Source: a plasmid
Reading direction: 5' to 3' (one strand)
Length of the DNA: 64,000 bases
Sequence record: NZ_AP019725.1
The notes beneath the pieces are model-generated. The model had not been told where the DNA came from, ran no database searches, and saw only the letters and a list, made by a program, of their open reading frames with translations. Below are positions 28,161 through 51,770 of this stretch, piece after piece (the first letter of the stretch is position 1; the number at the start of each line of letters is the position of its first letter). Both the position numbers and the translations under genes were made by a program.

Positions 28161-29432
28161 TTACTTCACGAGAATGACATCATCGAGGTTGGTGGTGTAC
28201 TGCTTGCTGATGTGTTCGCATTTGAGGTGCCATGACTTATCTGTAGTGCCCTGGACAGCTACCTTTATGGTGTTGTGGCCATTCTTTCGGTTGATAGCAT
28301 CTATGGCGGCGGCCAGGCGTGATTGCTTGTCACGGTCAATGGTGTCAAAAAGGTTGGTTTGGATGGCAGAATCAGGAACTATGTTCCAGACAATGACACC
28401 GGCTTTTTTGTACTGATAACCGCCCTCTTTGCGGAAATCCATGCGGAGTGCCCGAACTGCAGTGCTTACAAGTTCCTGAAGGTCGTTGGTCGGTACCTGC
28501 AGGTGGATGGTGCGGTTGATGCAGTACTGCGGAAGATCCATACGGAAACGGCTGGTATAGGCGAATACTGTTATCTCTGTGCAGCAGCTGTGCTGCATAC
28601 GGAGCTTACGGACACATTCGGAAGAAAAGTTGGCGACAGCTTCCTCTAAGCTGGAGAGTTCGGACAGACCGGAGTCAGGGAAACTTCGGCTGGTACAGAT
28701 ACTCTTCTTCTGTGGCAGTTCCTCGACATCGATGCAGGATTCACCACGAAGCTCCTTCCAAGTACGTACACCGGTAATTGTAAGTTATTTTCGCACAAAA
28801 CTCTCGCTTTTCTGAGTGAAATCCCAGGCGGTATTTAAACCGTAATAGTGCAGCTTATCCAAGCTTCGATGGCCGATACCCCAAACATCGCCAATTTCGA
28901 AGCCCTGCAGCGCCTTGATGCGCTTTTCCTCAGAATCAATCATGCATACACCCTGATATCCCTTGTACTTCTTTCCGTAACGGCTTGCCACCTTCGCCAG
29001 AGTCTTTGTCGGAGCAATACCCATCGTAACCGGGATGCCGGTACCCTTTCCGATGGTCTTCACAATCCTGTGACCGTAGGAAACCAACTTCTCCCCTTCT
29101 CCGAAGCCGGAGAGATCCAGGAACGCTTCATCAATTGAGTACTGGGTCAGTTCGGGCGTGAACTCGGACAGCAGCATCATTACCCGGCGACTCATGTCAC
29201 CGTACAGGTTGTAGTTTGAGCTGAAGACAGCCACATTGTTTGCCTCAAGGACTTCACGAATCTGGTAGAGAGGTGTACCCATCTTGATACCCATTGCTTT
29301 AACTTCGTTGCTTCGGGCCACGACACAGCCGTCATTGTTACTCAGAACAACGACAGGTTTGTCACGGAGCAGCGGATTGAACACGCGCTCGCATGAACAG
29401 TAGAAGTTATTGCAATCGACAAGGGCTATCAT
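28161..29432 (-). pseudogene. umuC: Y-family DNA polymerase UmuC/DinB-like with a single in-frame TAA at 28785-28787
   Basis: N-terminal part [36 protein letters not shown] (palm). The same frame continues through the stop: ...ESFVRK*LTITGVRTWKELRGESCIDVEELPQKKSICTSRSFPDSGLSELSSLEEAVANFSSECVRKLRMQHSCC... to the C-terminal DUF4113-like end. The total would be about 423 codons. Confidence 0.75.
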
Positions 29433-29878
29433 CTTCCTTTTCTAAGCTGTCTCTTTATGTTATAAGTAAGAACACCCCATATCAGGTAGTTGTTCTCTTC
29501 AGTAATCTTTATGGGTGAATATTCCTCGTTGGCCGGTACGAGCCAGATACATTTCTCCTTATCGTCAAAGCGCACAGTCTTCAGCGTGAACTCTCCATCG
29601 ATGAAAGCCACAACGATGTCACCGTCCTGAGGCTCCAAGGCCTTGTCTATAACCAACAGGTCGCCATCATCAATACCACAGTCCTTCATTGAATCTCCGG
29701 AAGCACGGGCATAGAATGTTGTGGCCGGATGACGTATGAGTTCCCGGTTCAGGTCTATGCTGTCAGTCATGTAGTCCTGGGCCGGTGAAGGAAATCCAGC
29801 TCTCACACCTTGATCTGCAAACGGCAATGACAGTTCACTGCTCAGGTCAGCAGAATACATGGTAAGTTTTATGTTCAT
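29429..29878 (-). CDS. umuD: UmuD-like LexA/S24 peptidase-family protein
   Basis: ARASGDSM (Ser nucleophile) and [11 protein letters not shown] (Lys). 149 aa. It overlaps the umuC start by 4 nt. Confidence 0.8.
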
Positions 29879-30286: not shown

Positions 30287-30574
30287 TTAAATATTTTTCA
30301 ATTTACTTATTGAAGCAACAAACTCTTTGGCAGGTTTGAAAGCAGGTATATCATGTTCCGGCACAATTAATGTAGTGTTTCTGCAAATATTGCGAGCGGT
30401 TTTCTCTGCTCTATGCTTCAGGATAAAGCTGCCGAAGCCTCTTAGAAAGACAGGTTCCTGATTTGCCAATGAAGATTTTACTTCAGACATGAATGCCTCT
30501 ACTACTGTTAATGCTGTTGCGTAATCTATACCAGTAGAATAAGATATTTGTTTAACTAATTCAGATTTTGTCAT
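30287..30574 (-). CDS. HU/IHF-family DNA-binding protein
   Basis: MTKSELVKQIS...VFLRGFGSFILKHRAEKTARN...IPAFKP matches the HU fold signature. The probable start is the internal Met (the track ORF extends to 30619). Confidence 0.75.
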   Translation of the reverse strand: MTKSELVKQISYSTGIDYATALTVVEAFMSEVKSSLANQEPVFLRGFGSFILKHRAEKTARNICRNTTLIVPEHDIPAFKPAKEFVASISKLKNI

Positions 30575-30630
30575 ATAGCTATTTATAAAGGTTGATAATA
30601 AATACATTAAAATAGGCACAAAGATAATAA

Positions 30631-31584
30631 TTAGGAAGCATCAGATTTCAATAATGACAATTTTAAAGAGCCATCACACAACAAATCATAATATAAATAA
30701 AGCAACGGTTTTAAATAAGACCGGATAGCCGGAACCTGCAAATATATTTTCTTATTTACCATAACACACGAAAGCTTTTCATAACCGTTTGGTATATGCT
30801 TATTAAGCTGAGAGATAAAATTAATAATCTTTTGAGGAGTAGGCCAGTTCAAGAACTGAATGGTCACATTCATATCATCATAACTAACAGATAATTTATA
30901 AGAAAGATCTTGTGAGGTAACGAGAGAAGAAATAAGAAGCAGAGCCTCTAAATAATTGCTACCAGCCATTACTATTATATCTCTATCACAAGATATTTTT
31001 GACAAAACATAATCAATCAGCAAAGTTGAAGATGAAGAAAGCAAATATCCTGTTGAGTCTGGATCACCGGATTTATCCAGACCAAAGAACAAGACAGGAT
31101 CCCAGCAGATATATACAGAGCCAGACTTATCTGTGCGTATTGAAGCCAGGCACTGATTATCGTCAAACAAAAGTCTTGTATTTCCCTTAACTGGATCAAA
31201 TTGAAAAAGATTGCGATAGGCATTCAGTCCAGATTTATCCTGATGTATAGATTTGAGCAAATAGCCATGCAGTCCAAATACATGTTTTAGTTTCACATAT
31301 GTTTCTTTTGCCGAAACATCAAACAAATAATCTATTATTTGTTGTCTGCTGCAACGAACAGGCAGGGAAAACTCTTCGCAATCTTCCAATTCTTCTAAAT
31401 TAACCTTCAGTAATTCAGCCAGCATAATAACCGAAATATCCGTAAAACCGTATAATTCCATACAGCAAATTACGTTATTTTCATTACAATAAATGAGATA
31501 ACCCCTATTGTTGATTCTATAAAGGCGAAAAAAATCACCATACTCTACTGGAGTATATTCTTTGAAAAGCGACTGGAAATTCAT
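30631..31584 (-). CDS. Hypothetical protein (317 aa), AT-rich gene
   Basis: Clean ORF upstream of HU on the same strand. A DKSGDPDSTGY / IIVMAGSNYLE segment is faintly Toprim-like, but no confident motif was found. Confidence 0.45.
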   Translation of the reverse strand: MNFQSLFKEYTPVEYGDFFRLYRINNRGYLIYCNENNVICCMELYGFTDISVIMLAELLKVNLEELEDCEEFSLPVRCSRQQIIDYLFDVSAKETYVKLKHVFGLHGYLLKSIHQDKSGLNAYRNLFQFDPVKGNTRLLFDDNQCLASIRTDKSGSVYICWDPVLFFGLDKSGDPDSTGYLLSSSSTLLIDYVLSKISCDRDIIVMAGSNYLEALLLISSLVTSQDLSYKLSVSYDDMNVTIQFLNWPTPQKIINFISQLNKHIPNGYEKLSCVMVNKKIYLQVPAIRSYLKPLLYLYYDLLCDGSLKLSLLKSDAS

Positions 31585-31595
31585 ATTTGATATTT

Positions 31596-31790
31596 TTAAA
31601 GTGACAAATCATTATTTTTATGTTTCTTTTTCCGTTTCAAAGGCGGAAGATCATCTTCTCTATTTTTCCTGCTACCGCCAGTAATATCAATATCCGGTAT
31701 AAAAGGAAGAGCAGAATGTGACATATACTCATTATCGCGTTCTAAAGACTCTCGCCACTCCCCTACCCTGTATATCGTGTTATCATGCAA
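31596..31790 (-). CDS. Hypothetical small basic protein (64 aa)
   Basis: ORF immediately upstream of the 317-aa gene. Lys-rich C-terminus. Confidence 0.3.
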   Translation of the reverse strand: MHDNTIYRVGEWRESLERDNEYMSHSALPFIPDIDITGGSRKNREDDLPPLKRKKKHKNNDLSL

Positions 31791-32048
31791 TAAAGGCTCT
31801 CTATCAAAATGGCTCTGTATATTAGCATAGGTAAATTTGCGAGATATATCGGAAGCCTTAAATTCAAATGGAATATACCTATCTTTGGCAACAAGAATCA
31901 GTTTGCCAGTGCTGCAAGTGTCAGCCCGGAACAGATAGGTAGAATAATAAAGTTGGAACGGGATTTTGGATATACATTAAAAAGAAATTTAAGATTGCCA
32001 GCTGGAGCGTTCGGAGAAAACTGTGGTGCTACTTAGTTAATTGCAGAT

Positions 32049-32474
32049 ATGGAAGTAAAGTATGGAGTTTATAAAGTTGTCGGTTCAAAATCTGAACTGG
32101 TTATAGCTTATGGAGAACCGCACGTACCAATGAGGACGAGACGAAAATATGCCGGCAAGAAAGCCAAAATTAAGGCTATAGAACAGCTTACCGGCAATGT
32201 AATGGATACTCATCTATCGACAAGTGAAATTAATGCTTATATTGGCCAATATATTTTTGGAACTTCTCAATGGGCAGAGTATCATCGATTATTTGAATAT
32301 TTTGCCAGTGAACTGGAACAAGTTCCGGAACCAGTAGAACTGAAGTTTCTTGTGATAGTTGAGTTTGATGAAGCAATGTGTAGGCCTGATGATGATCGGC
32401 TTATTTACATGGTGAAACAAGCTTTGGAAAATAACTCTATAGACATATATAGGGGCTTCAAAATCCAATCATAA
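32049..32474 (+). CDS. Hypothetical protein (141 aa)
   Basis: ORF with a plausible start. No motif recognised. Confidence 0.35.
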   Translation: MEVKYGVYKVVGSKSELVIAYGEPHVPMRTRRKYAGKKAKIKAIEQLTGNVMDTHLSTSEINAYIGQYIFGTSQWAEYHRLFEYFASELEQVPEPVELKFLVIVEFDEAMCRPDDDRLIYMVKQALENNSIDIYRGFKIQS

Positions 32475-32593
32475 CTTTCTCCATCCAGGCAATTGATAAC
32501 AAATAGGGAGAAGCATGAGACGTCAAATCGAATGACAAACAAATCAATATATTATAATTTAACGTCTTTCTTTTCCTACTTTGTTACTTTCAA

Positions 32594-33481
32594 CTAATCT
32601 ATTGGTATGTTAAAATCTTGTCGCAGTTTGAATTTTACTAAAGTTGATGTTGCTATCTTATGAAAATCAGGATCTTCTTCAATTCCGGATAACATTGTGT
32701 ATATTTCATGTATAGTTTTATCTTCTCTTTTAATAATTTTTTCTTCAATAAATGGATAATCGAATGGATATAGCTTCTTCAATTGTTGCATTATAAACTT
32801 CATATATTCAGGTCTCAGCCTTGCAAGACGTAATACATCAATTTCATTGATAATATCAAAAGCCACAGTGCTTATTTTACTTCCACGTCCGATTACAGCT
32901 CGCCCTATATTTATTTTTATATAAAATGGCAAGGAGCCTTCCTGGTATAATTTGCTAATAACTTTTTCAATAGGAATTAAAATCCGGCTTTTCAACATTG
33001 CATTTGTATAATTAATGCCAAGTATTGCTTTAAGTTCCTCGGGTGATGTTTTATATGTTTTTCCTTTGGATATTATTTCATATAATACATCGCTTTTCAT
33101 ATTAAATTTTGATAATGCATTTAAGAATACATTTGCGATATATGTATTCTCTATAGTTGATTTATCAGCATGATATAAATAAATAGATAATGCATCTGTA
33201 TTGTGTTTTATTTCTATTCCAGCATTGTGCTCATCACATGATATAACAAGTGGACGCATTTTAAAACCGCTTTTAGTAACTTCTCGAACAACAGTTTGAT
33301 GATAGAGTGCGAGAATTGAAAAAAAAGCACTTTGGTTTGGGAAGTATTTATAAATGCTCTCCCATGAAATATAGGATGTTATACAATAACTCTTTTTTTG
33401 ATTTGAAAAAGAGCTATATATTTGCTCATCGAATAGAGCTAATAGTGAGCGGAAGCTATATGATGATAATTTATTTGACAT
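32594..33481 (-). CDS. Hypothetical protein (295 aa), second gene of an AT-rich two-gene operon
   Basis: Overlaps the upstream gene by 11 nt (translational coupling). No recognisable catalytic motif. Confidence 0.5.
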   Translation of the reverse strand: MSNKLSSYSFRSLLALFDEQIYSSFSNQKKSYCITSYISWESIYKYFPNQSAFFSILALYHQTVVREVTKSGFKMRPLVISCDEHNAGIEIKHNTDALSIYLYHADKSTIENTYIANVFLNALSKFNMKSDVLYEIISKGKTYKTSPEELKAILGINYTNAMLKSRILIPIEKVISKLYQEGSLPFYIKINIGRAVIGRGSKISTVAFDIINEIDVLRLARLRPEYMKFIMQQLKKLYPFDYPFIEEKIIKREDKTIHEIYTMLSGIEEDPDFHKIATSTLVKFKLRQDFNIPID

Positions 33482-34811
33482 TATAACAAACTTTTAAATT
33501 AGCTGGAAAATATTTAAGAAGAACACGTTGAAAATCATCAATAAAATATGTTTCAATAGTATTATATACATTATATGAAGTTTTGAATGTCAATATACAT
33601 TCTGTGTCAGTTTCTCTATAGTCATAAAAATTTAATTGTGAAAATAGATCTTTAATCTGTGTACTGGCAGAACTTTCTTTGATATGAGTTATACATTCTG
33701 CCCAATAACGGATACCCGCAGCCGTATCTTTTTCTTCTTTTTGAAATAATGGTGCATCTTTTATCTTGGATTGATCTATTTTAGAAGAGTTTGGATTTAT
33801 TCCATATCGTCTGAATATAAAGCATAAATAATTAGTCTTTTTATTTATATGTGAAGTTTCTGTATTTTCATATTTATATAAACGCAGCCATAAATGTATA
33901 ATTTTATCACTATCCATCAGTCGTATTTGGTTCAATATATTTATTCTATATTTCTCTAAGTGTTTTCGTAAGAAATTGTCTATTTTCATAAATGATTCTT
34001 GTGCTTCAATATCCTGCCGTTTTGTACGACTATCATTATGAACAGTGAATTCCCATCCCGCAATTTTTTTACATTTTCCTACCAACTCTCTTCGTTCTTG
34101 ATATGTAAAGAAACGAGGTGATAAACCTGCATCGAAAAGCTTCTTTATTTCAGTTTGTGTGGGAATAAGTATTTTATCAAGAATATTTGTTACATTATAT
34201 TTAATATCAAATTTTTTGTTTATTTCGGTAGGAGTTAAAAAGAATTTGTAATTATCACGAGGATCATCATGTTTTAGCATTTCCCAATACATTTCATATG
34301 TGTAAGATGATTTGAAAAATGTTGTCAAATTATAATCTAAGGAAGTGTAAGATGTTCCATTAGTTATAATATATATTTGTAAAATCTCTGGATCTACATT
34401 CAGATGTAACCCTGTATCGTCTAATCGAGCACGAGAAAACAAGCTCATATAATCAAAGTTACCGTCAGCGTCCGGTTCACCTTTTATTTTCATAAAATCT
34501 CTAATCATCTTATCAATATCCTTTTTCCAATTTGGAGTCGGATACCATTCTCGTAAAACCTCTGGTGGAATATCAAGTTTTAATATCCGCTGATTACGTA
34601 TGTATTCTTGCAAATCAGTATTCAGAAATTGAATATATCTCTCTATCAATAATTGGCTACGGCTTCGAACTATTGAAGTTGTAAAGCCTGGAGCTTGTTT
34701 ATTACGTTTAAGCAGGGCTTCTTCTTCGCTACTTATCGGTATATTCTCTTGTTTGACTTGGACCATAATTTTTATATTTGCCACAAATATAAGAAGATAT
34801 TTTAATAACAC
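33471..34811 (-). CDS. Hypothetical protein (446 aa), first gene of an AT-rich two-gene operon; candidate iteron-binding replication/partition protein
   Basis: Long clean ORF. An iteron-like repeat array lies about 175 bp upstream. An alternative start MVQVKQ is at 34766. Confidence 0.5.
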   Translation of the reverse strand: MLLKYLLIFVANIKIMVQVKQENIPISSEEEALLKRNKQAPGFTTSIVRSRSQLLIERYIQFLNTDLQEYIRNQRILKLDIPPEVLREWYPTPNWKKDIDKMIRDFMKIKGEPDADGNFDYMSLFSRARLDDTGLHLNVDPEILQIYIITNGTSYTSLDYNLTTFFKSSYTYEMYWEMLKHDDPRDNYKFFLTPTEINKKFDIKYNVTNILDKILIPTQTEIKKLFDAGLSPRFFTYQERRELVGKCKKIAGWEFTVHNDSRTKRQDIEAQESFMKIDNFLRKHLEKYRINILNQIRLMDSDKIIHLWLRLYKYENTETSHINKKTNYLCFIFRRYGINPNSSKIDQSKIKDAPLFQKEEKDTAAGIRYWAECITHIKESSASTQIKDLFSQLNFYDYRETDTECILTFKTSYNVYNTIETYFIDDFQRVLLKYFPANLKVCYNVK

Positions 34812-34986
34812 GTACTGTTATAAAGAAAATAAATAATTGAAAGTGTAATAGGAGTCTTATTCAGCTATTGATAATCAACAAAAAAGAAATGTTAATTCAT
34901 ATGCTTAAAAATGCTAATCATATTAACACTTATTTACAGCTTTCATCTAATTCACGTAGACCCAGAATTTTCTACAACTAAATGAG

Positions 34987-35150
34987 CGTACCTTTCCAGA
35001 GGTGAAAGCGTACCTTTCCAGAGGTGAAAACGTACCTTTCCAGAAGTGAAAACGTAACCTTTCCAGAGGTGAAAGCGTTTTCCAGAGGTGAAAACGTAAC
35101 CTTTCCAGAAGTGAAAGCGTTTTCCAGAGGTGAAAACGTTCCTTTTTAAA
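34987..35150. repeat. Iteron-like tandem direct repeats, 7 full plus 1 partial unit of 19-23 bp (CGTA(A)CCTTTCCAGARGTGAAAR / CGTTTTCCAGAGGTGAAAA)
   Basis: Units at 34987, 35009, 35031, 35053, 35076, 35095, 35118 and a partial at 35137. They are contiguous with no spacers, so this is not a CRISPR array. The array sits upstream of the 446-aa gene and beside the mob module. Confidence 0.8.
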
Positions 35151-35860
35151 TCTCTAATTATCAAGTAATTACGAATGTTAAAAAAAGATGCTTAGCTTTA
35201 GCTATAATATTAGCTTCTTTTTTGCTAAAGATATTACGAAAAACACTTCTAAAATAAAATCATCCATGCAAACAAATGAATCAATAATGAAAAGCAACAA
35301 ATAGGGAAAATAAATCAAAAAATTAAACTGAGTGTTTTAGGGCTATTTTAAGGCCCCTTTTGTGCTTGACAAGCCATTTCTTCAAAATCTAATAAAAGTT
35401 CCAAATTGGGCAAAAAACAAGCCAATAGGATGTGTTTTGGAAGCGAATGTCATTAGCGTTGCAGTTGTATCCTGATGAGATTTTTTCAAGAAGTTTTGTA
35501 GTCGCATAAGTTAGCAAATATTTTTTAGGATTTATATTGTAAATTAATTTCATATATTATTTCCCTAATAGTAGCTTTACTGATGAGGGAAATGGAACGA
35601 AGTGTAATGTGATTAGCAAGAAGAGTTCACGCAAATTGTGAACTTAATAACGCAAAGCGTTATATATTAGATAGTTATAAAATACATAATATTTTTTAGG
35701 TAGAATTTTGGTAGAATTTATATAATTAATATCTTAATTTAAAATGATTTATAAGGTGGAATGTTAAAAATATTCTAATTTATAAATGCCATATAATCAG
35801 CATATTAATTTTTCATATATTGTTTTTTGGTGGAAAATAGGTGGAATTATTAATATTAAC

Positions 35861-35868
35861 TATCTTTG
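35861..35868 (+). promoter_or_regulatory. Candidate Bacteroides -7 element TATCTTTG (TAnnTTTG) 22 nt upstream of the mobA ATG
   Basis: Matches the Bacteroides sigma-ABfr -7 consensus. The nearest TTTG upstream is 31 nt away, so the -33 spacing is not canonical. Confidence 0.3.
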
Positions 35869-35890
35869 TTGCAATAAAATAGATAATTAA

Positions 35891-36475
35891 ATGGCAGAGG
35901 AATATAAAAGTATAAAGATTAAAGAGGATGTAAAGAATAGACTTGATAGATATAAAAAGAGATGCAGTTATTCAGACTGCCTGGATGAGATGCTTGGGTA
36001 TTTCGAGCTGACCGGCGTAGAGCCCCGTCTTGGTCAAACACCTCCAGTTGCTACTTTTGTTTCTACCATGAAGTCTGGCAATGCTGTTTTATTGAAGAGA
36101 ATGGATGATCTGATAAAGATTCTACGTAATATTGAGATTAATAAGATTGATCCCATATTACATAGTGTTGAGGATGGATTTTTCTCGGATAGAAGTAATA
36201 CTCCAGAAGTAGGGTTAAGTGTTTCTGAGGAGGAATTATACCAGGTAATACAAATGAATGAGAAATTGAAATCGGATATACGAAATAAAGATATACTTAT
36301 ACAAAAACTTCGGTCGGATGCTATTGAAAATAATGTTATTCAGGATATTATATCTGATATTGAAGAACTATTATCTGACAGAATTCTTTCTTCTAATAAA
36401 GACGGTTTCTTTCTATTGTCTCGCGAGCATAGAGATCAACTAATAAGAAAAATTAGAACATATATCAATGTATAG
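35891..36475 (+). CDS. mobA: MobA-like mobilisation accessory protein
   Basis: 194 aa. First gene of a three-gene module followed by a relaxase and a coupling protein, which is the arrangement of Bacteroides NBU/Tn4555-type mob operons. Confidence 0.5.
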   Translation: MAEEYKSIKIKEDVKNRLDRYKKRCSYSDCLDEMLGYFELTGVEPRLGQTPPVATFVSTMKSGNAVLLKRMDDLIKILRNIEINKIDPILHSVEDGFFSDRSNTPEVGLSVSEEELYQVIQMNEKLKSDIRNKDILIQKLRSDAIENNVIQDIISDIEELLSDRILSSNKDGFFLLSREHRDQLIRKIRTYINV

Positions 36476-37397
36476 CAAATTGCATCGTCCAGAAAAAAAT
36501 GAGTTGGGAGTGTCAGTTAATGCAGGCAGTTGTGTTAAATTGGCTCATTACTTGGATAAGGAATCTGGTAGTGGAAAATTCTTTTTTTCGCAAAATCAGG
36601 ATAGTGTGCCTTTGACCGAAGTAATACAAAAAATAGACAACAATAAGAAAACACTTAAAAACAATCAAGATAAATTCTACATGTTATCCTACAATCCTTC
36701 ACAAAGGGAAATTGCCCATTTGATTAAAGAGGTGACAGGAAAAGATAACGTGGTAGCTCTTTCTTCACTGACGGATAAGGAGATTGAAAAAGTTGTCTCT
36801 GAATTCCAGGATTACGTAAGGGACTGTATGGATATATATGCTAGGAATTTTAATAGAAATAAGGATTTGTCAAGTGAAGATCTTCTCTGGTTTGGAAGAG
36901 TGGAAACTGAACGGCATTATACATATCTTGATGAAGAGGTTAAGGATGGCTTAAGAAGTAAGGGAGACTTGAAAGAAGGATTGCAGCTTCATGCTCATGT
37001 TATAGTTTCCAGGATGGACGTTACTCAGACCATATCATTGTCGCCTCTGGCTAAAAGTATGGGAAATGTTAATGTTCTTAATGGGAAAGCCGTGAAAAAT
37101 GGTTTCAGCATGAAAGGGTGGCAGGTAGACTGCTTTCAGCATTTCGGTAATAAATATGGATATATAGCAAATGCAGATGAACGCTTTTACTATCACGATA
37201 GCAGTTATTCCAGCTATAAAAATAAGATTCAGAATAAGATTATACATGAGGTAATGGAGGATATGAAAGAGGAGAGGCAATTTATGACTGGTGCAAGAAA
37301 TATTACTCTAATTCTTCATCCAACAAAGAAATCTGTCAAGTTGTATTTAAAGCAAAAAATTAAAAATATTTTATTGGAAAATGAGTCAGTGATATGA
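36468..37397 (+). CDS. mobB: Relaxase/mobilisation nuclease (MobB-like)
   Basis: HAHVIVSRMD (HxH metal motif of relaxases). 309 aa. Overlaps mobA by 8 nt. Confidence 0.65.
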   Translation: MYSKLHRPEKNELGVSVNAGSCVKLAHYLDKESGSGKFFFSQNQDSVPLTEVIQKIDNNKKTLKNNQDKFYMLSYNPSQREIAHLIKEVTGKDNVVALSSLTDKEIEKVVSEFQDYVRDCMDIYARNFNRNKDLSSEDLLWFGRVETERHYTYLDEEVKDGLRSKGDLKEGLQLHAHVIVSRMDVTQTISLSPLAKSMGNVNVLNGKAVKNGFSMKGWQVDCFQHFGNKYGYIANADERFYYHDSSYSSYKNKIQNKIIHEVMEDMKEERQFMTGARNITLILHPTKKSVKLYLKQKIKNILLENESVI

Positions 37398-39025
37398 GTT
37401 TGATTTTTATTGAATGTTTGTTTCTTTCTGCATGTTTGATTTTTCTTATGGGCATTAATCCATTTGTAAAAAAATGGAAAAATCTTGTATTGTATGCTTG
37501 TGGAGGTTTTTTTCTTACTTTGATAGTTTCGTACGTATTTCTCTGTTTTTTTGAGGTTCAATTATCCTTTTATTTGATTGCTGTTTTTTCATTATTTTTT
37601 GTTGCCAAATATTTGCTCAATGAATCTGGTGTCGAGAAAGCCAAGCCTAGAAAAGACGAAGATACATTTATTCTTGGCAGCGAAAGCGGTCAGCTTGAAT
37701 TCTATTATCCACGTGATAATTTCATGGTTTTGGGGGGTGCCGGTTCCGGTAAGACTGCCTCGATAGGTAAGCCCATTCTTGAACAGTATATACGTTATGG
37801 ATGGGCAGGATTCATCTATGATTATAAAGATTATGATTATACGAAGACAGCTTGGAACCTGGTGCAGAAGTATAAATATCCTTATAAGTTCTATTATATA
37901 AGTTTCACGGATATGTCACGTACATATAGGTTTAATATTCTTAATAAAAATGTGATTCGTAATGAAACGATGCTCTTCCAGGCGATGACAGACTTCTTTA
38001 ATGCAATGAAACCTGAGAAAGGTAATACTGATGAATGGTTTCAGGCTGCGCTTGGATTACTTTGTGGTGTGGCGGTGAGATTCTATAAATTTCAGGGTGA
38101 TTACGAGAAGTATTGCACCCTTCCGCATATTCTCAATTTCATCCTGATGGCCACACCGGAACAATTGACGCGTTTTCTGGAGGGGGATATGATGTCTAAG
38201 ATGAAAGCTGGTGCGTTTCTTGGCTCCAAGGGCAGTGAACGTACCCAAAGTTCTGTGATATTTTCCATCAATAACTATATCAGTAATTTAGCTACTAACA
38301 AGAACGTATGTTATGTCCTTTCTGGTAATGATTTTATCTATGACTTGATAGATCCGGAAGATCCGAAGCTCTTTGCTGTTTCAAATAACTTTGCGATTGA
38401 GAGTATGATTTCTCCTATTGTAGCGATGTTAGTTCCCCTTGCTGCACGTCGGATTGAGTTTGGTAATCGTGTGAAATTCGCATTTGTTCTTGATGAAATG
38501 ACTACCGTTAAAGTGAATGACTTCCAATCTTTGCCATCGGTCTTGAGAGAATATGGCGTTTCATTTCTTGTATTGACACAATCCGGTACGAAATTCGATA
38601 AATTGTATGGTAAGGAGGATAGGGTTTCCATTATGGCCAATTTTGCTAATTTATTCCTGGGGAAAACAAAAGATGTGGAAGCATTGAAGTATTATCCCTT
38701 GTTTTTTGGAAAGGAGGAGAAGGAAAAGAAAAGTATTTCCGCGGGGTCCAGTTCCGGTCGATACAATAGTAGTGTTACCAGGAGCAAACAGAAGGAGGAA
38801 ATTTATGATAGCAATAAATTTGCTGAATTGCAGAAAGGAGAATTTATACTTTCTGCAGGGGAGTCTAATGTAAGCCGAATAAAAACACGGTTTGAAAAGT
38901 TTTCACTGGATGAAAAACCGTTACCGATAGTGAAGTTAACAACTGACAGGGAGGTGGAACAGAATTATCGACAGATTGGAATTGACTGTGAGAAGCTTTT
39001 GAATGAGCTTTGCCCGCTCCAATGA
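37394..39025 (+). CDS. mobC: Type IV coupling protein (TraG/VirD4-family, MobC-like)
   Basis: Two N-terminal TM segments. Walker A GGAGSGKTAS. Walker B-like FVLDEMT. 543 aa. Overlaps mobB by 4 nt. Confidence 0.8.
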   Translation: MSLIFIECLFLSACLIFLMGINPFVKKWKNLVLYACGGFFLTLIVSYVFLCFFEVQLSFYLIAVFSLFFVAKYLLNESGVEKAKPRKDEDTFILGSESGQLEFYYPRDNFMVLGGAGSGKTASIGKPILEQYIRYGWAGFIYDYKDYDYTKTAWNLVQKYKYPYKFYYISFTDMSRTYRFNILNKNVIRNETMLFQAMTDFFNAMKPEKGNTDEWFQAALGLLCGVAVRFYKFQGDYEKYCTLPHILNFILMATPEQLTRFLEGDMMSKMKAGAFLGSKGSERTQSSVIFSINNYISNLATNKNVCYVLSGNDFIYDLIDPEDPKLFAVSNNFAIESMISPIVAMLVPLAARRIEFGNRVKFAFVLDEMTTVKVNDFQSLPSVLREYGVSFLVLTQSGTKFDKLYGKEDRVSIMANFANLFLGKTKDVEALKYYPLFFGKEEKEKKSISAGSSSGRYNSSVTRSKQKEEIYDSNKFAELQKGEFILSAGESNVSRIKTRFEKFSLDEKPLPIVKLTTDREVEQNYRQIGIDCEKLLNELCPLQ

Positions 39026-39242
39026 CATATTTTTATCTCCAATGGTGTGAATTAAGGTATTAAAGAATCATTTTGACTGTATTGTTCTATTTTTTGACTA
39101 TATTGTTGTATGATAATATATTTTAAATGGCTATTTTTATAAACAATCGGTGAAATTGCTTTGATGACAAGGTGGGATTTATTACGAATTCATGCCCTGA
39201 TTGTGTGTGAAGGATATCACTATATAATCTTTATTAAATTTA

Positions 39243-40673
39243 ATGCCTATGAAAAAGTATTTATTGTTTGTGTGGATTGCTGTAGTTTTTTGTTCTTGTA
39301 ATGAAGATAACTTTGATATTTCCCCTATGGAAGCAGATGCTACTTGTGCTAACATTATTGATGATGAACACTTTGTGTCAGTTAGTCAAGCCTCTAAAGT
39401 GGGTTCCTTGTTTCTAAATAACAATGGAAATGGGAATTGCGTGCACACAAGAAACAGTTCTGTTGTTCCTGAAGCAACTTCTGATAAGACTGCTAAAGAA
39501 ATAAGAACTATTTACAATAAAAATGGTGTGCCTTGTATGTATGTAATTAACTATGAAAGTGGTGGATTTGTAATAGTAAGCGCTACTAAGAATTACTATC
39601 CGATTCTTGCATATTCTGAAACCGGTTCAATGAATGTAGAAGAAGCTATGAAGACAGGATTTTCTGTTTGGTCGGAAAAAACAATACAAAAAATTGTGGA
39701 AAGTAGTTCTTGGGATGGAGATTCCCAAGCAGAGTTTCAGAGAATGTGGGTTGCTTATGATAAACAAGAAGTAGAAGTTGCCCCTCTTGATGCTTTAAAT
39801 GATGGAGTGTTATTTCGTCAACGTATGAATGAATTATATGAACTGTGTCCAGGATATTCTTTCGGCCCGTTGACCAGTGCTCGTTCTTTCCTTTCTCAAT
39901 CAGAATATGATAGTTATGTTGAGAAGGCTGAACTTTACGGTTCTCCACTTGAATTTACGATTGTAGGCTATAAACGAGATCCCCATGAAAGGGTTGGGCC
40001 GTTAATTAATACTGTATGGAGTCAAAAAAGTCCTTTTAACGGGTTATGTCCCCAAAATTGTCTTGCAGGTTGTGTTGCTATTGCTGTGGCCCAAATCATG
40101 AGATACCATGAATGGCCTGCTACTTATAATTGGAGTGACATGCCCAATACAACAGCAACAATAGCTACTCAAACATTGATAGCAGATGTAGGTAAGGCTG
40201 TGGATATGGAATATGGTGAATCGGCATCTAAATCCTCTATTGGTAAAGCTGCACTTGGCTTTTGGGCTAAAGGATATAATGTGGAGCTAAAGGAACATAA
40301 ATCTTGGGAAGTAGAAGATGAAATATTTATCAATCATCGTCCGGTATATATGCGGGGAAATCAGAAGGAATTTATGGGTTTTAGTTGGGATGGACATGCC
40401 TGGGTGTGTGAAGGAGCTGAGAGGTGGAATACAGGTGCAAACTATTTTGTGGAGTATCTTGTAAATCGCTCTACCAATCCGAGCTATTCAAGTTGTGGAC
40501 TTCCTGCATACTGGGCTCCACAAAGGTCTTCCGGTTCTGGTTATCTTTTGTTTTATATGAATTGGGGATGGGGAGGAGAAGCTAATGCATGGTATAATTT
40601 TAGTGATGTAGATTCAGGATATGGAAATTTTGAATATGATAGACAGAATTTATATGTTTATCCTAAAAAATGA
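39243..40673 (+). CDS. C10-family (SpeB/streptopain-like, Bfp-like) cysteine peptidase with N-terminal propeptide domain, lipoprotein
   Basis: Lipobox (VFCSCNED). Propeptide-like NGVPCMYVINYESGGFVIVSATKNYYPILAYSETG. Active-site block GCVAIAVAQIMRYHEWP (compare SpeB GCVATATAQIMKYH). His block DGHAWVCEGAE. Confidence 0.8.
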   Translation: MPMKKYLLFVWIAVVFCSCNEDNFDISPMEADATCANIIDDEHFVSVSQASKVGSLFLNNNGNGNCVHTRNSSVVPEATSDKTAKEIRTIYNKNGVPCMYVINYESGGFVIVSATKNYYPILAYSETGSMNVEEAMKTGFSVWSEKTIQKIVESSSWDGDSQAEFQRMWVAYDKQEVEVAPLDALNDGVLFRQRMNELYELCPGYSFGPLTSARSFLSQSEYDSYVEKAELYGSPLEFTIVGYKRDPHERVGPLINTVWSQKSPFNGLCPQNCLAGCVAIAVAQIMRYHEWPATYNWSDMPNTTATIATQTLIADVGKAVDMEYGESASKSSIGKAALGFWAKGYNVELKEHKSWEVEDEIFINHRPVYMRGNQKEFMGFSWDGHAWVCEGAERWNTGANYFVEYLVNRSTNPSYSSCGLPAYWAPQRSSGSGYLLFYMNWGWGGEANAWYNFSDVDSGYGNFEYDRQNLYVYPKK

Positions 40674-40679
40674 TACGTT

Positions 40680-41213
40680 ATGAAACATACATATTTTACT
40701 TTGTTTTTTTGTTTGTTATCTTTATTGCTTGGTAGTTGTGACAAAAATGTGGATGATTTCTATCCTCCTTATAACTATAATTATTATATAGCTTTTGTTG
40801 ATGAATCAGGTAAGGATTTGTTGGAGGGGATATCGACTACTCTGAGTGATACAAAGCTTCCTATTCTGGAGAAAGGTACTTATTCTTATGTTTTTATTCC
40901 TCCTAATTCTAAAGACCAGTTCACGTTTTCTGGGATTATAGAGTTAGAAAATGTGAAGGGTCATAATGCTTTAGGTATTCATTTAGGAATGGCAGACTGG
41001 CATCTTCACAAAAAGCCCGAAGTGATTACTCATAATTTTGCTTCTTCTTTTATTTTTGGAGATGACGAGATGCATGAGTTGGTCTCTTATTGGAAATTCG
41101 ATAGTATGTATAAGAAGGCTGATCTTGTTCGTGTTACTATAGATAATGTGGATGCGCGCATTGAAATGGACACATATAAATTCCAATCATTGGCTATTTT
41201 AACGTTGAAATAG
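40680..41213 (+). CDS. Lipoprotein of unknown function immediately downstream of the C10 protease (candidate cognate inhibitor/partner)
   Basis: Lipobox (LLGSCDKN). 177 aa, 7 nt after the protease stop. In B. fragilis the bfp genes are paired with small lipoprotein inhibitors. Homology was not verified. Confidence 0.4.
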   Translation: MKHTYFTLFFCLLSLLLGSCDKNVDDFYPPYNYNYYIAFVDESGKDLLEGISTTLSDTKLPILEKGTYSYVFIPPNSKDQFTFSGIIELENVKGHNALGIHLGMADWHLHKKPEVITHNFASSFIFGDDEMHELVSYWKFDSMYKKADLVRVTIDNVDARIEMDTYKFQSLAILTLK

Positions 41214-41287
41214 TAATAGCATTGCTGATGATTTAATATTGTTTCCTTTTAAAGTCGTGCATAACAACATATAGTTTGTACCAATTA

Positions 41288-41340
41288 ACATAGTGTATTG
41301 AAATAAATCTAAAACTCGTTTTCAATACACTATGTTTTTT
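41288..41340 (+). terminator. Rho-independent terminator: 16-bp perfect stem (ACATAGTGTATTGAAA / TTTCAATACACTATGT), 16-nt loop, T6
   Basis: Seen directly in the sequence, 75 nt after the 40680-41213 stop. Confidence 0.7.
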
Positions 41341-41376
41341 GTATTGAAATAATTCTTTGAATAAATTTCGTATTTT

Positions 41377-41691
41377 ATGCTCCATAAAGACATAGATATG
41401 GAACATCAAGGAGAAATCATATTATATCAGCCGGACGAAGCCGTTAAGCTGGAAGTACGTTTGGAAGATGAAACAGTCTGGCTGACACAAGCACAAATAG
41501 CTGAATTATTTGGGACTGAAGTTCCAGCTATTTCTAAACATATACGCAATATTATTCGAAATGGAGAATTAGAGAAGGAAGCAACTGTTTCCAAAATGGA
41601 AATAGTTCGTTTAGAAGGTTCTCGAAAGGTTAAACGTGTTATTGATATTTATAACCTTGATATGATACGGGAATTCTCGCTTAATTCTTAA
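41377..41691 (+). pseudogene. RhuM-family (Virulence_RhuM) protein, N-terminal fragment only
   Basis: GEIILYQPDEAVKLEVRLEDETVWLTQAQIAELFGTEVPAISKHIRNIIRNGEL aligns with the N-terminus of the full-length RhuM at 60979-61839. It ends after YNLDMI, about 180 aa short. Confidence 0.6.
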
Positions 41692-41783
41692 AGAAATCGG
41701 GTGTTTCCTCTTTTATATTTGAACGAACATGATTATCTTTGTGAAAGATAATCTTTCTCACTTATAATATAAAACTCATATAA

Positions 41784-43187
41784 ATGAAATTCAACCAGTT
41801 CATAGACAGACAAGACTCTTTGGAAAGACTACAAAATGCGTTTTTAAGAGAAACGCCCCAATTTCTTGTTATATACGGTAGAAGACGCATCGGTAAATCC
41901 ACGCTCATCAAGGAGATAATGAAAGACGATGATGTCTATTTTCTGAGTGACCAGACTAATGAGACCAACCAGCGTGCCTTGTTCGCCAAGACCATTGCTT
42001 ACTGCATCCCCCGGTTTGATAAAATGATTTATCCTGACTGGGAAACGCTGCTATTGGAGTTGAATGACAAGCTAACCCGGCGTATAACCGTTTGTCTGGA
42101 CGAATTCCCGTACATGGTCAAGAGCTGTACTTCCTTGCCATCGGTCATCCAAAAGCTACTTAATGGGAAAACACTCAAATATGACTTGATTATTTGCGGT
42201 TCTTCCCAACAACTCATGCAAGGATATGTACTGGATAAAAGAGAACCCTTGTATGGCTTGGCCGATGAGATTGTCAAATTAGAGCCAATCCCCGTATCCT
42301 ACATCAGCCAAGCGTTGGAAGTGGATAGAATCTCCGCAGTGGAAGAATACTCCATTTGGGGAGGGATACCCAGATACTGGGAACTGAGAGCCGATTATTC
42401 GGACATGAACACCGCCATCCGAAAATTGATTTTAGATACCAAAGGGATATTGGCTGAAGAGCCCCAAAGACTTCTTCGTGATGACCTGCGAGATACAGTA
42501 CAGACCTCTACCATCTTATCCATCATTGGGAACGGCGTCAACCGCATTACCGAAATTGCATCAAGAGCAGGGAAGGATGCGAATCAAATTTCCGAACCAC
42601 TAAGCAAATTACGTGAGTTAGGATACGTCAGGCGTGAGATACCTTTCGGCGAGAGTGAGAAAAAAAGCAAGAAAGGCATTTATCGCATCAATGACAATAT
42701 GTTGCAGTTTTACTACCGATTCGTCGCACCGTACCATTCTATCCTCGAACTGGGACGTATCGACACCGTCATGCGCCTGATAGAGACACAATTCAGCCTA
42801 TATGTAGGTGACTGTTGGGAACACTTGTGCCGACAATATGTAAGCGGTAACGAAATAGACGGTATCATCTACAACATGGCTTCCAGGTGGTGGGGGAAGA
42901 TATTCCCCAATGACAACAAAGAGGGAACGATGATAGAACTAGATATCGTAGCAGAATCCTTCGACAAGAAACATATTCTTATCGGAGAATGTAAGTGGAC
43001 GAACGGAGAAGATGCACAACGATTGGCTCACTCTTTATCAGAAAAAGCACAAAGCCTCCCATTCGTCAAAAGGGGGCAGCAGGTGCATCTCGTCCTTTTC
43101 CTGAAAAGGACACCCGAACATCCGGAAGCAGCTAGGTATTTCCTGCCGGAGAATATTGTGAGCTCTCATGCCTTTAGGCGTGAGTAG
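41784..43187 (+). CDS. AAA-type ATPase of the PF01637-like (archaeal-type ATPase + DUF234-like C-terminal) family
   Basis: Walker A IYGRRRIGKSTL. Walker B VCLDEFPY. 467 aa. Paralog of 52242-53597. Confidence 0.65.
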   Translation: MKFNQFIDRQDSLERLQNAFLRETPQFLVIYGRRRIGKSTLIKEIMKDDDVYFLSDQTNETNQRALFAKTIAYCIPRFDKMIYPDWETLLLELNDKLTRRITVCLDEFPYMVKSCTSLPSVIQKLLNGKTLKYDLIICGSSQQLMQGYVLDKREPLYGLADEIVKLEPIPVSYISQALEVDRISAVEEYSIWGGIPRYWELRADYSDMNTAIRKLILDTKGILAEEPQRLLRDDLRDTVQTSTILSIIGNGVNRITEIASRAGKDANQISEPLSKLRELGYVRREIPFGESEKKSKKGIYRINDNMLQFYYRFVAPYHSILELGRIDTVMRLIETQFSLYVGDCWEHLCRQYVSGNEIDGIIYNMASRWWGKIFPNDNKEGTMIELDIVAESFDKKHILIGECKWTNGEDAQRLAHSLSEKAQSLPFVKRGQQVHLVLFLKRTPEHPEAARYFLPENIVSSHAFRRE

Positions 43188-43225
43188 CTCACAACAATAG
43201 ATAAGGAAGAACAAAAACAAAAGAC

Positions 43226-43876
43226 ATGAATGTGGTTATTTATTCACGTGTAAGCTCACAATCTGCCAGGCAATCGACCGAGCGGCAGATTGTTGATTTG
43301 GAAAGATTTGCAACCGGACGGGGAGACAAGGTGGTTGCGGTCTTTGAAGAAAAGGTAAGCGGACGAAAGGCCAATGTAGATCGCCCGGTATTAAGCCGTT
43401 GTTTGGAATACTGCATAGATTCGCAGAACCAGGTGGATATGTTACTTCTGGCCGAGATTTCACGCTTGGGACGTTCCACCTTGGAAATTTTAAAGGCACT
43501 TGATATACTGCATACACATAAGGTATGCGTGTACATCCAAAATTTGAATTTGGAAACATTACGGCCTGACAAGACAGTAAATCCTTTGTCTTCGCTGGTA
43601 ACTACTTTGTTAGGGGAACTTGCAGCCATGGAACGCCAGGGAATCATCGATCGCCTCAATAGCGGACGGGAGTTGTATATTGAGAAAGGGGGGAGGTTGG
43701 GACGGAGACCGGGAAGCAAAAAAAACTTGGAACAGAAAAGAGAAGAATACAAAGAGGCTATTTCTCTATTGAGGAAAGGATATTCTATCCGGAATGTTGC
43801 TAAGCTGACAAATAAATCTGTTTCAACCATTCTAAGTGTAAAAAAGGAGTTTGGCATTGAAAATAGACTAAAATGA
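43226..43876 (+). CDS. Serine recombinase (resolvase/invertase family) with C-terminal HTH
   Basis: VVIYSRVSS catalytic Ser block. LAEISRLGRS. C-terminal HTH (YSIRNVAKLTNKSVSTI). 216 aa. Confidence 0.8.
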   Translation: MNVVIYSRVSSQSARQSTERQIVDLERFATGRGDKVVAVFEEKVSGRKANVDRPVLSRCLEYCIDSQNQVDMLLLAEISRLGRSTLEILKALDILHTHKVCVYIQNLNLETLRPDKTVNPLSSLVTTLLGELAAMERQGIIDRLNSGRELYIEKGGRLGRRPGSKKNLEQKREEYKEAISLLRKGYSIRNVAKLTNKSVSTILSVKKEFGIENRLK

Positions 43877-43894
43877 GGATTACTAAAATTAAAA

Positions 43895-44722
43895 TTGATT
43901 GATATGAAAATATATCATTATACAAATATAGAAGCTTTGGCACTCATTCTAAAGAATCAAACAATTCGATTCAACCGTTTGGACAAAGTAGATGATATAG
44001 AAGAAGGCAATGCAGAATCGTGGGGAGTGAAATTCTGCAAATATGTTTTTGTTTCTTGTTGGACAGACAAGAAAGAAGAAAATATTCCTCTATGGAAAAT
44101 GTATAGCGGCAATACTGGAGGAATAAGAATTGCACTTGAACAAGAAATGTTTAAAGAGTATTTGATTTCCGATTTAAAAATTGAAAGTTTACAATCCGAA
44201 GGAAGTATGATTTCTAAAATATCGCCTCAGGATATGATAAACCCTAATTTCTTTATTATTCCTATACAAGATTATGAGAATGATTTATTTTATAGGCATA
44301 TAAAATATGTGGATGATATTTTCCCTTTTACAAAGGATGCCATTCAAGTAAATAATATCCAAGGGAATAGGGGAGATATAATTGTGGACATGAAACCTTT
44401 TGGTTATTACAAAAATAATCGTTGGAAGTTTCAAGATGAAGTTAGATTCGTTCTCTATGTTTTTCCAATAAATCCTTTGTTGGAAAGTTCTAATCCTAAA
44501 ATGAACTCTATTGTAGTTCAAAGTCTTCTAAATAATAAATCTTTACCATTTGATTATTATGACATGAAATTAAAGGATGATGCTTTTAAGAATTTGGAAA
44601 TAACATTAAGCCCCTCTGCAACAGAATCTCAAGAAACGATTGTTCGGGCATTGGTTGACAAATATGCGCCTAAGGCAAAAATTAAAGAAAGTTCTTTAGG
44701 AAAAGTTGTTCGCTTAAAGTGA
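43895..44722 (+). CDS. DUF2971-like protein
   Basis: N-terminal IYHYTNIEALALILKNQTIRFNRLDKVDD, followed by E-rich hallmarks of DUF2971. 275 aa. 18 nt downstream of the recombinase. Confidence 0.5.
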   Translation: MIDMKIYHYTNIEALALILKNQTIRFNRLDKVDDIEEGNAESWGVKFCKYVFVSCWTDKKEENIPLWKMYSGNTGGIRIALEQEMFKEYLISDLKIESLQSEGSMISKISPQDMINPNFFIIPIQDYENDLFYRHIKYVDDIFPFTKDAIQVNNIQGNRGDIIVDMKPFGYYKNNRWKFQDEVRFVLYVFPINPLLESSNPKMNSIVVQSLLNNKSLPFDYYDMKLKDDAFKNLEITLSPSATESQETIVRALVDKYAPKAKIKESSLGKVVRLK

Positions 44723-44865
44723 GGGAAATGAGAAGTATGCCAACGGAAAACGAATTTTCAAGGATACATCGTTTATTTCTGATTCTGAGAAACAAGGTCA
44801 GCCGGTTTTCTAAGCAAGAGAGATTCTCATAGGGAAAAGTAAACACAGCGATATGCATCAAAAAT

Positions 44866-44914
44866 AGACACCAATCAGAAAATACAAAGTTGCTTGTTTT
44901 AATGATTGGTGTCT
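44866..44914 (-). terminator. Stem-loop (12-bp arms AGACACCAATCA/TGATTGGTGTCT, 25-nt loop) followed by an ATTTTT run on the minus strand; candidate terminator of the primase-like gene
   Basis: Located between the convergent genes ending at 44722 (+) and 44936 (-). Confidence 0.45.
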
Positions 44915-44935
44915 GGAACTGGTTTGGGAGTTATA

Positions 44936-46552: not shown

Positions 46553-46623
46553 ATCTTTTAAAATTTAAAATTACACATTTTTTTGAACTGATAGGGAAAA
46601 AAGGGAGAAAAACTTTTTTTATT

Positions 46624-47658: not shown

Positions 47659-47689
47659 TTTATATCTTCGTTTTTGTTGCCAGAATAAT

Positions 47690-49267: not shown

Positions 49268-49286
49268 TTTGTTTTGTAATTATTGA

Positions 49287-51167: not shown

Positions 51168-51770
51168 TTCGATTTTTCAATTGATGACTAACACTTATAG
51201 GGAAGATTAGTTGTCATTATTCTAACAGAACTCTAACAGCCAAATTCACTGTAATCGACACTAAAATTACAATAAAGTTCACCATACAAAACAATAGTTC
51301 GGTATCAATACAATCAATAAATCATGCCTATTCTTGCGCTGATGGTTCTGTATATAAGGTTAATCATGGAGGAGGTATTGCTCCAGGACAAAAACATGAA
51401 GCTAGTATTTCCATCTCAAGCAGTAAGTTACCGATGACATTCATAAATGTTTCAGACTCATATCCGTCTGGCTTATCAGGGGCTTCATATCCGACTACAA
51501 TTATAAGTACAACGAAAGAGGTTCTGGTCACAGCGAATTAATAACTAATTTCAGAAGGAAACAAGGCCGGCCTCAATTATGGGCCAGCCTTGTCTTCATA
51601 AGCTATATACTGAAAAACTCTTTAGGAAATCATTTATTTAATAATCATATTTTCTCCAATCTGCTGATATATCCATATTCCTCGTTACAGTAAAAGTATA
51701 ACTATGCAGGCGATTAGTGTCAGAGAAGGTCTTTATTGCCGTTCCGGAATCCAGATAGAGTTCGGTACGG

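Follow-up and report, generated by a model that had tools for sequence, protein, structure and literature searches.

How are the large plasmids of gut Bacteroidales copied? These low-copy elements carry fimbriae, polysaccharide-utilisation loci, resistance or defence genes, and the question is raised by a locus in the DNA analysed here, a stretch of 64,000 nucleotides from the plasmid record NZ_AP019725.1 (the window). A tandem array of short direct repeats lies there upstream of two overlapping minus-strand genes, to which the initial annotation could give no function, reading the array as an iteron-like element in the replication and maintenance core of an integrated, mobilisable element. 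Our analysis suggests that the array very likely represents the iterons of a plasmid replication origin (oriV), with the larger of the two proteins as its Rep initiator. Reading the array as iterons is supported by the predicted Rep fold of the protein, the presence of an array at homologous loci, its co-variation with Rep and the residence of the module on plasmids. The array and the two genes are placed as follows.

34987 to 35145, plus strand: putative iteron array, seven 19-bp cores TTTCCAGAGGTGAAARCGT, recognised by Tandem Repeats Finder, shuffle statistics and homologous loci.
33471 to 34811, minus strand: rep (large), a 446-aa open reading frame (ORF) whose likely true start is the ATG at 34766 (431 aa).
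32594 to 33481, minus strand: rep paralogue, 295 aa, overlapping the large rep by 11 nt, with a predicted winged-helix Rep-like core.

Tandem Repeats Finder detects the array at 34987-35145 with a period of 22 (7.4 copies, score 216) and also with a super-period of 42 (3.5 copies, 91% matches, score 232). Read directly, the units run CGTACC, then TTTCCAGAGGTGAAAG and onward, and they contain seven TTTCCAGAGGTGAAARCGT cores, all in the same orientation, which start at 34993, 35015, 35037, 35060, 35079, 35102 and 35121. Start-to-start spacings are therefore 22, 22, 23, 19, 23 and 19 bp, the linkers between cores being ACC, ACC, AACC, none, AACC and none (3, 3, 4, 0, 4 and 0 bp). The gene-proximal end is on the left, where the edge of the array is formed by the tail of an incomplete unit, GAGCGTACC. 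When up to three mismatches are allowed, the core is found seven times in 64 kb, every time within the array, against a chance expectation of 0.01 from 100 shuffles, none of which (0/100) reached seven. Indeed, the iteron-like repeats claimed in the initial annotation are real, and its distance of about 175 bp between array and operon holds, at 176 bp from the GTG at 34811 (about 220 bp from the ATG at 34766); the ORF coordinates likewise bear out the 11-nt overlap of the 446-aa and 295-aa genes. The array is located in a 1.08-kb divergent intergenic region between the minus-strand rep pair and a plus-strand mobA-mobB-mobC operon, and as a set of several direct repeats in one orientation near rep it has the make-up of an iteron replicon.

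A 70-aa minus-strand ORF spans the array (34952-35164), and a conserved coding repeat was ruled out because none of the unit lengths (19, 22 and 23) is divisible by three. Clustered regularly interspaced short palindromic repeats (CRISPR) were ruled out as well, the array having no spacers, and a known RNA is not the explanation since there were no Rfam matches across the whole window.

We next consider whether the large protein may be an initiator. Homologues and annotated relatives begin near the ATG at 34766 and not at the GTG at 34811, so the protein is probably 431 rather than 446 aa long. The two families comprise 28 and 22 clusters at 90% identity, and a profile search of 1.84 billion representatives returned just 75 matches at E ≤ 1e-3. 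AlphaFold models made from the family alignments are confident (predicted local distance difference test scores, pLDDT, of 84.5 and 88.2), and all 36 significant Foldseek matches of the large protein (36/36) are RepE54-iteron or Rep-iteron-ssDNA (single-stranded DNA) complexes. The model has the tandem winged-helix (WH1-WH2) fold of an initiator, and the check for a Rep or winged-helix fold proposed in the initial annotation was thus positive, with matches of the RepE54 type. The 295-aa protein, a distant paralogue of the large Rep that lacks the DnaA-like domain, is also predicted to have a Rep-like fold. The predicted domains of the large Rep, in the numbering of the 431-aa form, are given below.

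Residues ~17-245, nt 34032-34718: WH1-WH2.
Residues ~245-350: helical linker.
Residues ~350-431, nt 33474-33719: DnaA-domain-I-like C-terminal domain.

Remote profile matches point the same way, with Rep3_N present in 35 of 50 (best E 1.9e-31), Rep3_C in 34 of 50 and DnaA_N in 8 of 50 (best E 6.9e-11). One relative, P0062, has DnaA_N at 38.6 bits (cut-off 24.6), and in another, P0114, Rep3_N, Rep3_C and DnaA_N occur together. An hhalign comparison of the family with residues 1-90 of E. coli DnaA was colinear end to end at E 0.11, which is not significant; the DnaA sequence for it was entered by hand. The statement in the initial annotation that the proteins have no recognisable domains therefore stands for direct hidden Markov model (HMM) scans, in which Pfam Rep3_N/Rep3_C or an NCBIfam Rep model gave no direct match at E ≤ 0.1, but not beyond these, given the predicted Rep fold and the transitive Rep3 and DnaA_N matches. 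Matches to RRM_3 (E 0.084) and a GntR model (E 0.0088) were far below the cut-offs and were dismissed, and a profile search of PDB sequences found solely two hnRNP Q matches, which we took as chance. The possibility of a defence enzyme pair, raised at the outset, also fell away: neither protein matches a defence family in PADLOC, and the repeat array is present at homologous loci. Our predicted structures and profile matches thus make it highly probable that the large protein is a strongly diverged member of the Rep_3 (Pi/RepE/RepA) superfamily and the initiator of the array origin.

If the array were the binding site of this Rep, the two should change together. A metagenome scan gave 46 homologous loci, and a scan of representative-genome contigs gave two. 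A tandem array is found 217-302 bp upstream of the homologue in 43 of the 46 (period 22; 19-21 in one locus), and at one further locus (1/46) the upstream sequence is too short to judge. The true exceptions (2/46) are a truncated 261-aa Rep copy, of a type also present in B. heparinolyticus, and a partial match with 35% identity. The truncated Rep, with 261 residues matched at 72% identity, occurs in B. heparinolyticus NZ_SLXB01000017.1 (L005) and on a 290-kb metagenome contig (L044), has neither an upstream array nor mob genes nearby, and has the appearance of a degenerated leftover, perhaps in a chromosome. The Rep clades are followed by seven or more distinct unit types, with differences from the window unit at 96% Rep identity and at all values from 61% downwards, as the cores listed here against Rep identity to the window illustrate.

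Rep 100% and 76% identical: same as the window core.
Rep 96% identical: one to two positions changed.
Rep ~60% identical: TTTCCATTTACGTGAGCGT alternating with TTTCCAAAAGCGTGAGCGT.
Rep 54% identical: TTTCCAAAAGGGAAAACGT (majority unit).
Rep 53% identical: TTTCCAAAGTCGAAAGCGT.
Rep 49% identical: TTCCCYAAAAGCGTGAGCG.
Rep 40% identical: TTTCCAGTACTCCGTCAGT.

All units have TTYCC at one end in common, and most have CGT at the other. Where MobA and MobB are 95-100% identical to those of the window but Rep is only ~50% identical, the array is different; conversely, at locus L013 (Rep 96%, MobA 50% identical) the array is almost that of the window. The array follows Rep, not Mob, and the suggestion to look for the repeat elsewhere was well placed, since the array is present at homologous loci and its unit co-varies with the protein. 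A comparison aimed at DNA-specificity residues, between the window Rep and the 96%-identical Rep of L013, was uninformative, the 17 substitutions being scattered.

The same independence is seen when the window is compared with the plasmid pBuniCL06T06-1 by blastn. Segments 35237-43880 and 44937-51049 are ~97% identical and 31994-32585 is 80% identical, and between them lies one stretch of a different kind.

32586 to 35236, no strand: putative exchangeable rep-iteron cassette, with zero nucleotide similarity to pBuniCL06T06-1 (blastn).

This stretch comprises exactly the two genes, the array and ~90 bp past the array. Rep and Mob identities assort independently at other loci, and the rep-iteron stretch behaves as an exchangeable cassette. 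The initial annotation had joined mobABC with the array in one core; the genes do lie in the same region, but they are a module of their own, whose recombination is not tied to the rep-iteron cassette.

Further support comes from the more distant relative P0062 (loci L061-L063), a 449-aa protein with Rep3_C and DnaA_N. In place of the 295-aa paralogue, an overlapping gene of 119-120 aa comes after it; it too has tandem repeats, ~5 copies of ATTAAATACCAATTTGTGAAA in 22-, 32- and 53-bp registers 350-500 bp upstream, and it is mostly found on 2-10-kb contigs.

Are the elements that carry this module replicating plasmids? Homologues of the large protein with 49-60% identity are encoded on five circular Bacteroides plasmids of 62-89 kb in PLSDB, where no plasmid has the window Rep variant at >60% identity. 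We considered pMMCAT as the identity of the window and set it aside; the preprint on it makes no mention of replication. Gene order is constant on all five (paralogue, rep, array, a spacer of ~1 kb, mobA, mobB), and each has a 22-bp array at the equivalent place with a differing unit sequence: 10 copies of TTCCCCAAAAGCGTGAGCGTAG in pBuniCL06T06-1, 10.9 copies in B. fragilis GUT04 and 8.5 copies in pBFS01_1, the units TTTCCATTTACGTGAGCGT and TTTCCAAAAGCGTGAGCGT alternating in the B. fragilis plasmids. pBuniCL06T06-1 encodes ParA, ParB and a type IV secretion system and has no annotated Rep, and a scan of ten of its larger hypothetical proteins found zero Rep domains. Two of the five, pBFO17_1 and pBFS01_1 (records CP036540 and CP036547), have been described previously as circular plasmids of 85,671 bp and 78,085 bp, with read depths of 1.85x and 2.29x relative to the chromosome, and no alignment to chromosomal sequences; in neither did the authors find a known domain for plasmid replication (Sydenham et al. 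2019, PMC6927303). The module therefore resides on replicating plasmids for which no other replicon is apparent by annotation, which is not exhaustive.

The fine anatomy of the putative origin involves the following elements around the array.

35146 to 35345, plus strand: AT-rich, A-skewed gene-distal flank, candidate DNA-unwinding region (75.5% A+T; 91 A against 60 T).
35154 to 35165, plus-strand flank: CTAATTATCAAG-type (CTGAnnATCAG-type) palindrome, near-invariant across ten clades.
35195 to 35204: GCTTTAGCTA element, accompanied by TTGCTAAAGA at 35222-35231.
35301 to 35310: ATAGGGAAAA element in the A-rich flank.
34837 to 34848, plus strand: degenerate half of an iteron standing alone, TTGAAAGTGTAA, ~70 bp before the rep ATG.
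34784 to 34791, minus strand: possible Bacteroides-type -7 box TAtaTTTG, 18 nt upstream of the ATG at 34766, read by eye.

Within the array, gene-proximal units are 22 bp apart in every clade (loci L006-L059), and the gene-distal end of every complete array has 19-bp spacing, most often 23, 19, 23, 19. Linkers and cores vary in sequence, yet the lengths of the former stay at 3, 4 and 0 bp, which argues for a structural constraint behind the spacing pattern; 23 + 19 bp makes 42 bp, or about four helical turns. Copy number ranges from 4 to 10, and the hybrid-assembled plasmids still vary (8.5-10.9 copies). We considered two unit types for two Rep paralogues and downgraded this idea, as arrays are homogeneous in L047 and L048; the alternation of units is more simply explained by duplication of a 42-bp (23+19) doublet.

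Both flanks of the array are 76% A+T, compared with 55% for the array and 63% for the window. The flank elements (the CTGAnnATCAG-like palindrome, GCTTTAGCTAAAG with TTGCTAAAGA, and ATAGGGAAAA) are invariant or nearly so across ten clades whose iterons differ, and do not resemble a DnaA box. They are more likely host-factor or structural sites, because they do not change with Rep. No DnaA box TTATCCACA is found with up to one mismatch in 34812-35890, and the window as a whole has 20 such matches against 23.5 expected by chance. On the rep side, a lone iteron half is found in 8 of 9 clades, with 8-10 of 11 positions matching the iteron of its own clade, an offset of 54-81 bp and the same orientation; each case is weak alone, and the lone half is a candidate autoregulatory operator. 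Promoters of Bacteroides have a -7 consensus of TAnnTTTG, and the TAtaTTTG motif is likewise present in L001.

Several other explanations for the array deserve consideration. The replicon may be real but reside in a chromosome-integrated element (an integrative and conjugative or mobilisable element, ICE/IME), its iterons acting only after excision. Bacteroides mobile elements are often integrative, the window has a serine recombinase (43226-43876) and insertion sequences, and the topology of the replicon is not evident from the window ends. Window 10001-31876 is 99.8% identical to the 76-kb circular Phocaeicola vulgatus BFG-201 record NZ_CP103198.1, which has a mobilisation and transfer module unlike that of the window and encodes Tra proteins of the conjugative-transposon type. 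However, that segment together with most of 35237-64000 matches circular plasmid records at 95.7-99.8% identity, so both parts of the window have free circular relatives. Furthermore, the window genes examined are cargo of a polysaccharide-utilisation locus (PUL), insertion sequences and plasmid backbone, with no chromosomal housekeeping gene among them; across 143 blocks, no contig with the 76%-identical Rep is longer than 200 kb, and pBFO17_1 and pBFS01_1 did not align to chromosomes (PMC6927303). Integration is therefore unlikely, and the description of the element as integrated in the initial annotation is unsupported, its nearest relatives being free circular plasmids. It is also rather improbable that winged-helix proteins bind the array to regulate or segregate the plasmid without initiating replication, which would make the array a partition centromere or an operator for transcription alone. 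The predicted fold is specifically that of an initiator, relatives carry Rep_3 and DnaA_N domains, and no other Rep was found on these plasmids by annotation and the ten-protein scan; moreover, the array is not next to a par operon, its neighbours having a predicted Rep fold, and in the sister plasmid pBuniCL06T06-1 ParB and ParA are encoded elsewhere (6739-8436 and 44687-45565).

The proximity of the mob genes offers another explanation, in which the array is part of the origin of transfer (oriT) and a platform for the MobA accessory protein. By Pfam and NCBIfam, mobA encodes a BfmA/BtgA protein, mobB a DUF5712/MobB relaxase and mobC a coupling protein. The array shares the 1.08-kb intergenic region with mobA, and relaxosome accessory proteins often bind repeats. 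However, the array lies ~750 bp from mobA and is not inherited with MobA and MobB: loci with 95-100% identical MobA/MobB have different arrays, and the one with 50% MobA identity has nearly that of the window. Directly upstream of mobA there is, in addition, another conserved element outside the replicon.

35559 to 35890, plus strand: oriT-like block upstream of mobA, recognised from sequence and kept in L001 and L002.

The block has inverted repeats, GTTCACGCAAATTGTGAAC at 35626-35644 and ATAACGCAAAGCGTTAT at 35647-35663, followed by five or six GGTAGAA/GGTGGAA motifs, and a repeat detected by Tandem Repeats Finder at 35695-35720. Both pBuniCL06T06-1 and the B. fragilis plasmids retain the block, which in the comparison with the former falls outside the cassette boundary, with the mob genes in the 97%-identical part. 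The inverted repeats and GGTRGAA repeats give the impression of an oriT and mob promoter region of their own, and a role of the array in oriT is very unlikely. Lastly, the array could be a neutral, functionless minisatellite, as the 4-10 copies between otherwise identical loci would allow. Although the unit sequence is exchanged between clades, position, orientation, 19-bp core and 22...23/19 spacing are kept at protein identities as low as 40%; drift would not keep an architecture in this way, and this explanation is barely credible.

The reading of the array as oriV iterons with their own Rep must nonetheless be set against several points. Neither window protein has a direct Pfam, NCBIfam or PDB-sequence match, and the family assignment draws on predicted structure and transitive profile matches. 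Likewise, the lack of another Rep on these plasmids is judged from annotation and a ten-protein scan and is not exhaustive. DNA binding, origin opening and helicase recruitment are activities that we infer. Assembly may account for part of the variation in copy number among metagenome contigs, base composition is all that defines the putative unwinding region, and there is no classical inverted-repeat operator, the lone iteron half not being an inverted repeat.

How, then, might the origin function? Rep monomers would bind each 19-bp core through WH1 and WH2, one winged-helix domain reading the half common to the clades (TTYCC...CGT) and the other the clade-specific half. Seven bound initiators, roughly in helical phase, would stress the gene-distal A-rich flank and lead to its opening. 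The DnaA-domain-I-like C-terminal modules on the bound Reps may then form a multivalent platform to which the replicative helicase of the host, or its loader, is recruited, because multiple copies of DnaA domain I have an established helicase-recruiting role at oriC; with such a platform on Rep itself, no DnaA box would be needed. The lack of DnaA boxes fits DnaA-independent initiation without proving it. Theta replication at low copy number would follow. Spare iterons could pair plasmids (handcuffing) and so limit copy number, in agreement with the published depth of ~2x, and by means of the lone degenerate iteron near the promoter Rep would repress its own operon; handcuffing and autoregulation are both steps that we infer. 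The 295-aa paralogue, translationally coupled through the 11-nt overlap, may modulate initiation as a partner or an inhibitor. The helicase-docking role and the role of the paralogue are tentative. Rep and iteron sequence would jointly set incompatibility, and cassette swaps between near-identical plasmids could be understood because the Rep-iteron pair would do so.

A more far-reaching proposal is a self-sufficient two-protein initiator, in which the large Rep brings its own DnaA-domain-I/DciA-like docking module so that the origin fires without host DnaA, the paralogue co-assembles with it as a brake or partner, and the 23/19-bp doublets at the origin-proximal end of the array act as a code placing the complex by the melting region. 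We regard this as speculative, and as doubtful in its full form.

Several other features of the window were noted. An HU-family protein gene at 30287-30619 (minus strand; Bac_DNA_binding, E 3.5e-23) lies ~2 kb from the rep operon, and its product could be an origin accessory factor. A 141-aa ORF at 32049-32474 (plus strand), convergent with the rep operon and preceded by a 75-aa ORF (31809-32036, plus strand), is syntenic in nearly all loci at 32-98% identity and has no Pfam, NCBIfam or PADLOC match. Further to the left there is a umuD-like gene (29429-29878) and then an apparently split Y-family polymerase of the umuC type, with the N-terminal 215 aa at 28785-29432 and a separate 145 aa at 28161-28598; these were assigned by eye and from the annotation of another record, and for this stretch no coding sequence is annotated in the matching P. 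vulgatus record, consistent with a pseudogene. The PUL cargo occupies 1-25500, with genes for sulfatases and for a hybrid two-component regulator (2782-6888) and with large ORFs at 11325-16204; the annotation of NZ_CP103198.1 under the matching part names an agarase, a TonB-dependent receptor and a protein of the SusD family. A 23-bp repeat in two copies (11301-11356) overlaps the start of the large ORF 11325-14399.

On the other side of the mob genes, 46649-46846 (198 bp) is ~79% identical to the pBuniCL06T06-1 counterpart of 47715-47912, and vice versa, so that a repeated segment seems to be common to the adjacent minus-strand ORFs of 344 aa and 525 aa (no Pfam match in the sister plasmid). 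In pBuniCL06T06-1, 31266-35099 contains a row of three tyrosine recombinase genes (31396-34974), and there are none at window 51043-51257. Conversely, pBuniCL06T06-1 lacks a counterpart of window 51258-56343, where an IS66-family transposase (53824-55410) and an ATPase_2/DUF234 protein are encoded. An AT-rich 8/24-bp tandem repeat AATATTTG is present in 7.9 copies at 56591-56652.

The replication genes of large gut Bacteroidales plasmids are annotated as hypothetical proteins, and the cassette fills a gap that was stated for two of these plasmids (PMC6927303); very probably, it would explain the copying of plasmids reported without a known replication domain. It provides a marker by which such plasmids can be typed and recognised in genome and metagenome data, the iteron sequence would predict incompatibility groups, and swapped cassettes would account for mosaic backbones. 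The cassette would also be a compact, low-copy, Bacteroides-native replicon for vectors, and the natural fusion of Rep with a DnaA-domain-I-like module makes helicase recruitment by iteron initiators testable in a DciA-type host. To plasmid biologists an iteron replicon is, in principle, no surprise. In our partial coverage of the literature, neither this replicon nor a Rep-DnaA_N fusion was described, which does not prove novelty.

Functionally, the putative replicon is of the R6K-gamma, mini-F or pPS10 iteron type, yet it differs from each. The Bacteroides Rep is 14% identical to the Pi protein (pir) of R6K gamma, has no direct Rep_3 HMM match and is ~180 residues longer than Pi, with a helical linker and a DnaA-domain-I-like C-terminus; unlike R6K gamma, the module has no nearby DnaA box, a co-transcribed second Rep paralogue and non-uniform spacing (22...23/19). 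Mini-F RepE/ori2 and pPS10 RepA (Rep3_N PF01051 and Rep3_C PF21205) have an inverted-repeat operator bound by Rep dimers, and DnaA boxes, whereas the Bacteroides module has just the lone degenerate iteron near the promoter and no DnaA box. DnaA domain I (DnaA_N, PF11638), to which the window protein has no significant direct sequence similarity, and the DUF721 domain of DciA provide a further comparison: here a domain of this kind is predicted at the C-terminus of a plasmid Rep, not at the N-terminus of an AAA+ initiator. RctB of Vibrio chromosome 2 differs in its methylated 11/12-mers, its 39-mers and its added domains, and there is no sign of such sites here. Small Bacteroides Rep_3 plasmids of the pBFS01_2 and pBACSA03 type share the host range and the BfmA/BtgA-DUF5712 mobilisation genes, but their Rep is found by standard HMMs whereas the large module-bearing plasmids were reported without one. 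What sets the present module apart from these known systems is thus its extreme divergence, the predicted C-terminal DnaA-domain-I-like module, the co-transcribed paralogue and the conserved 22...23/19 spacing of its array.

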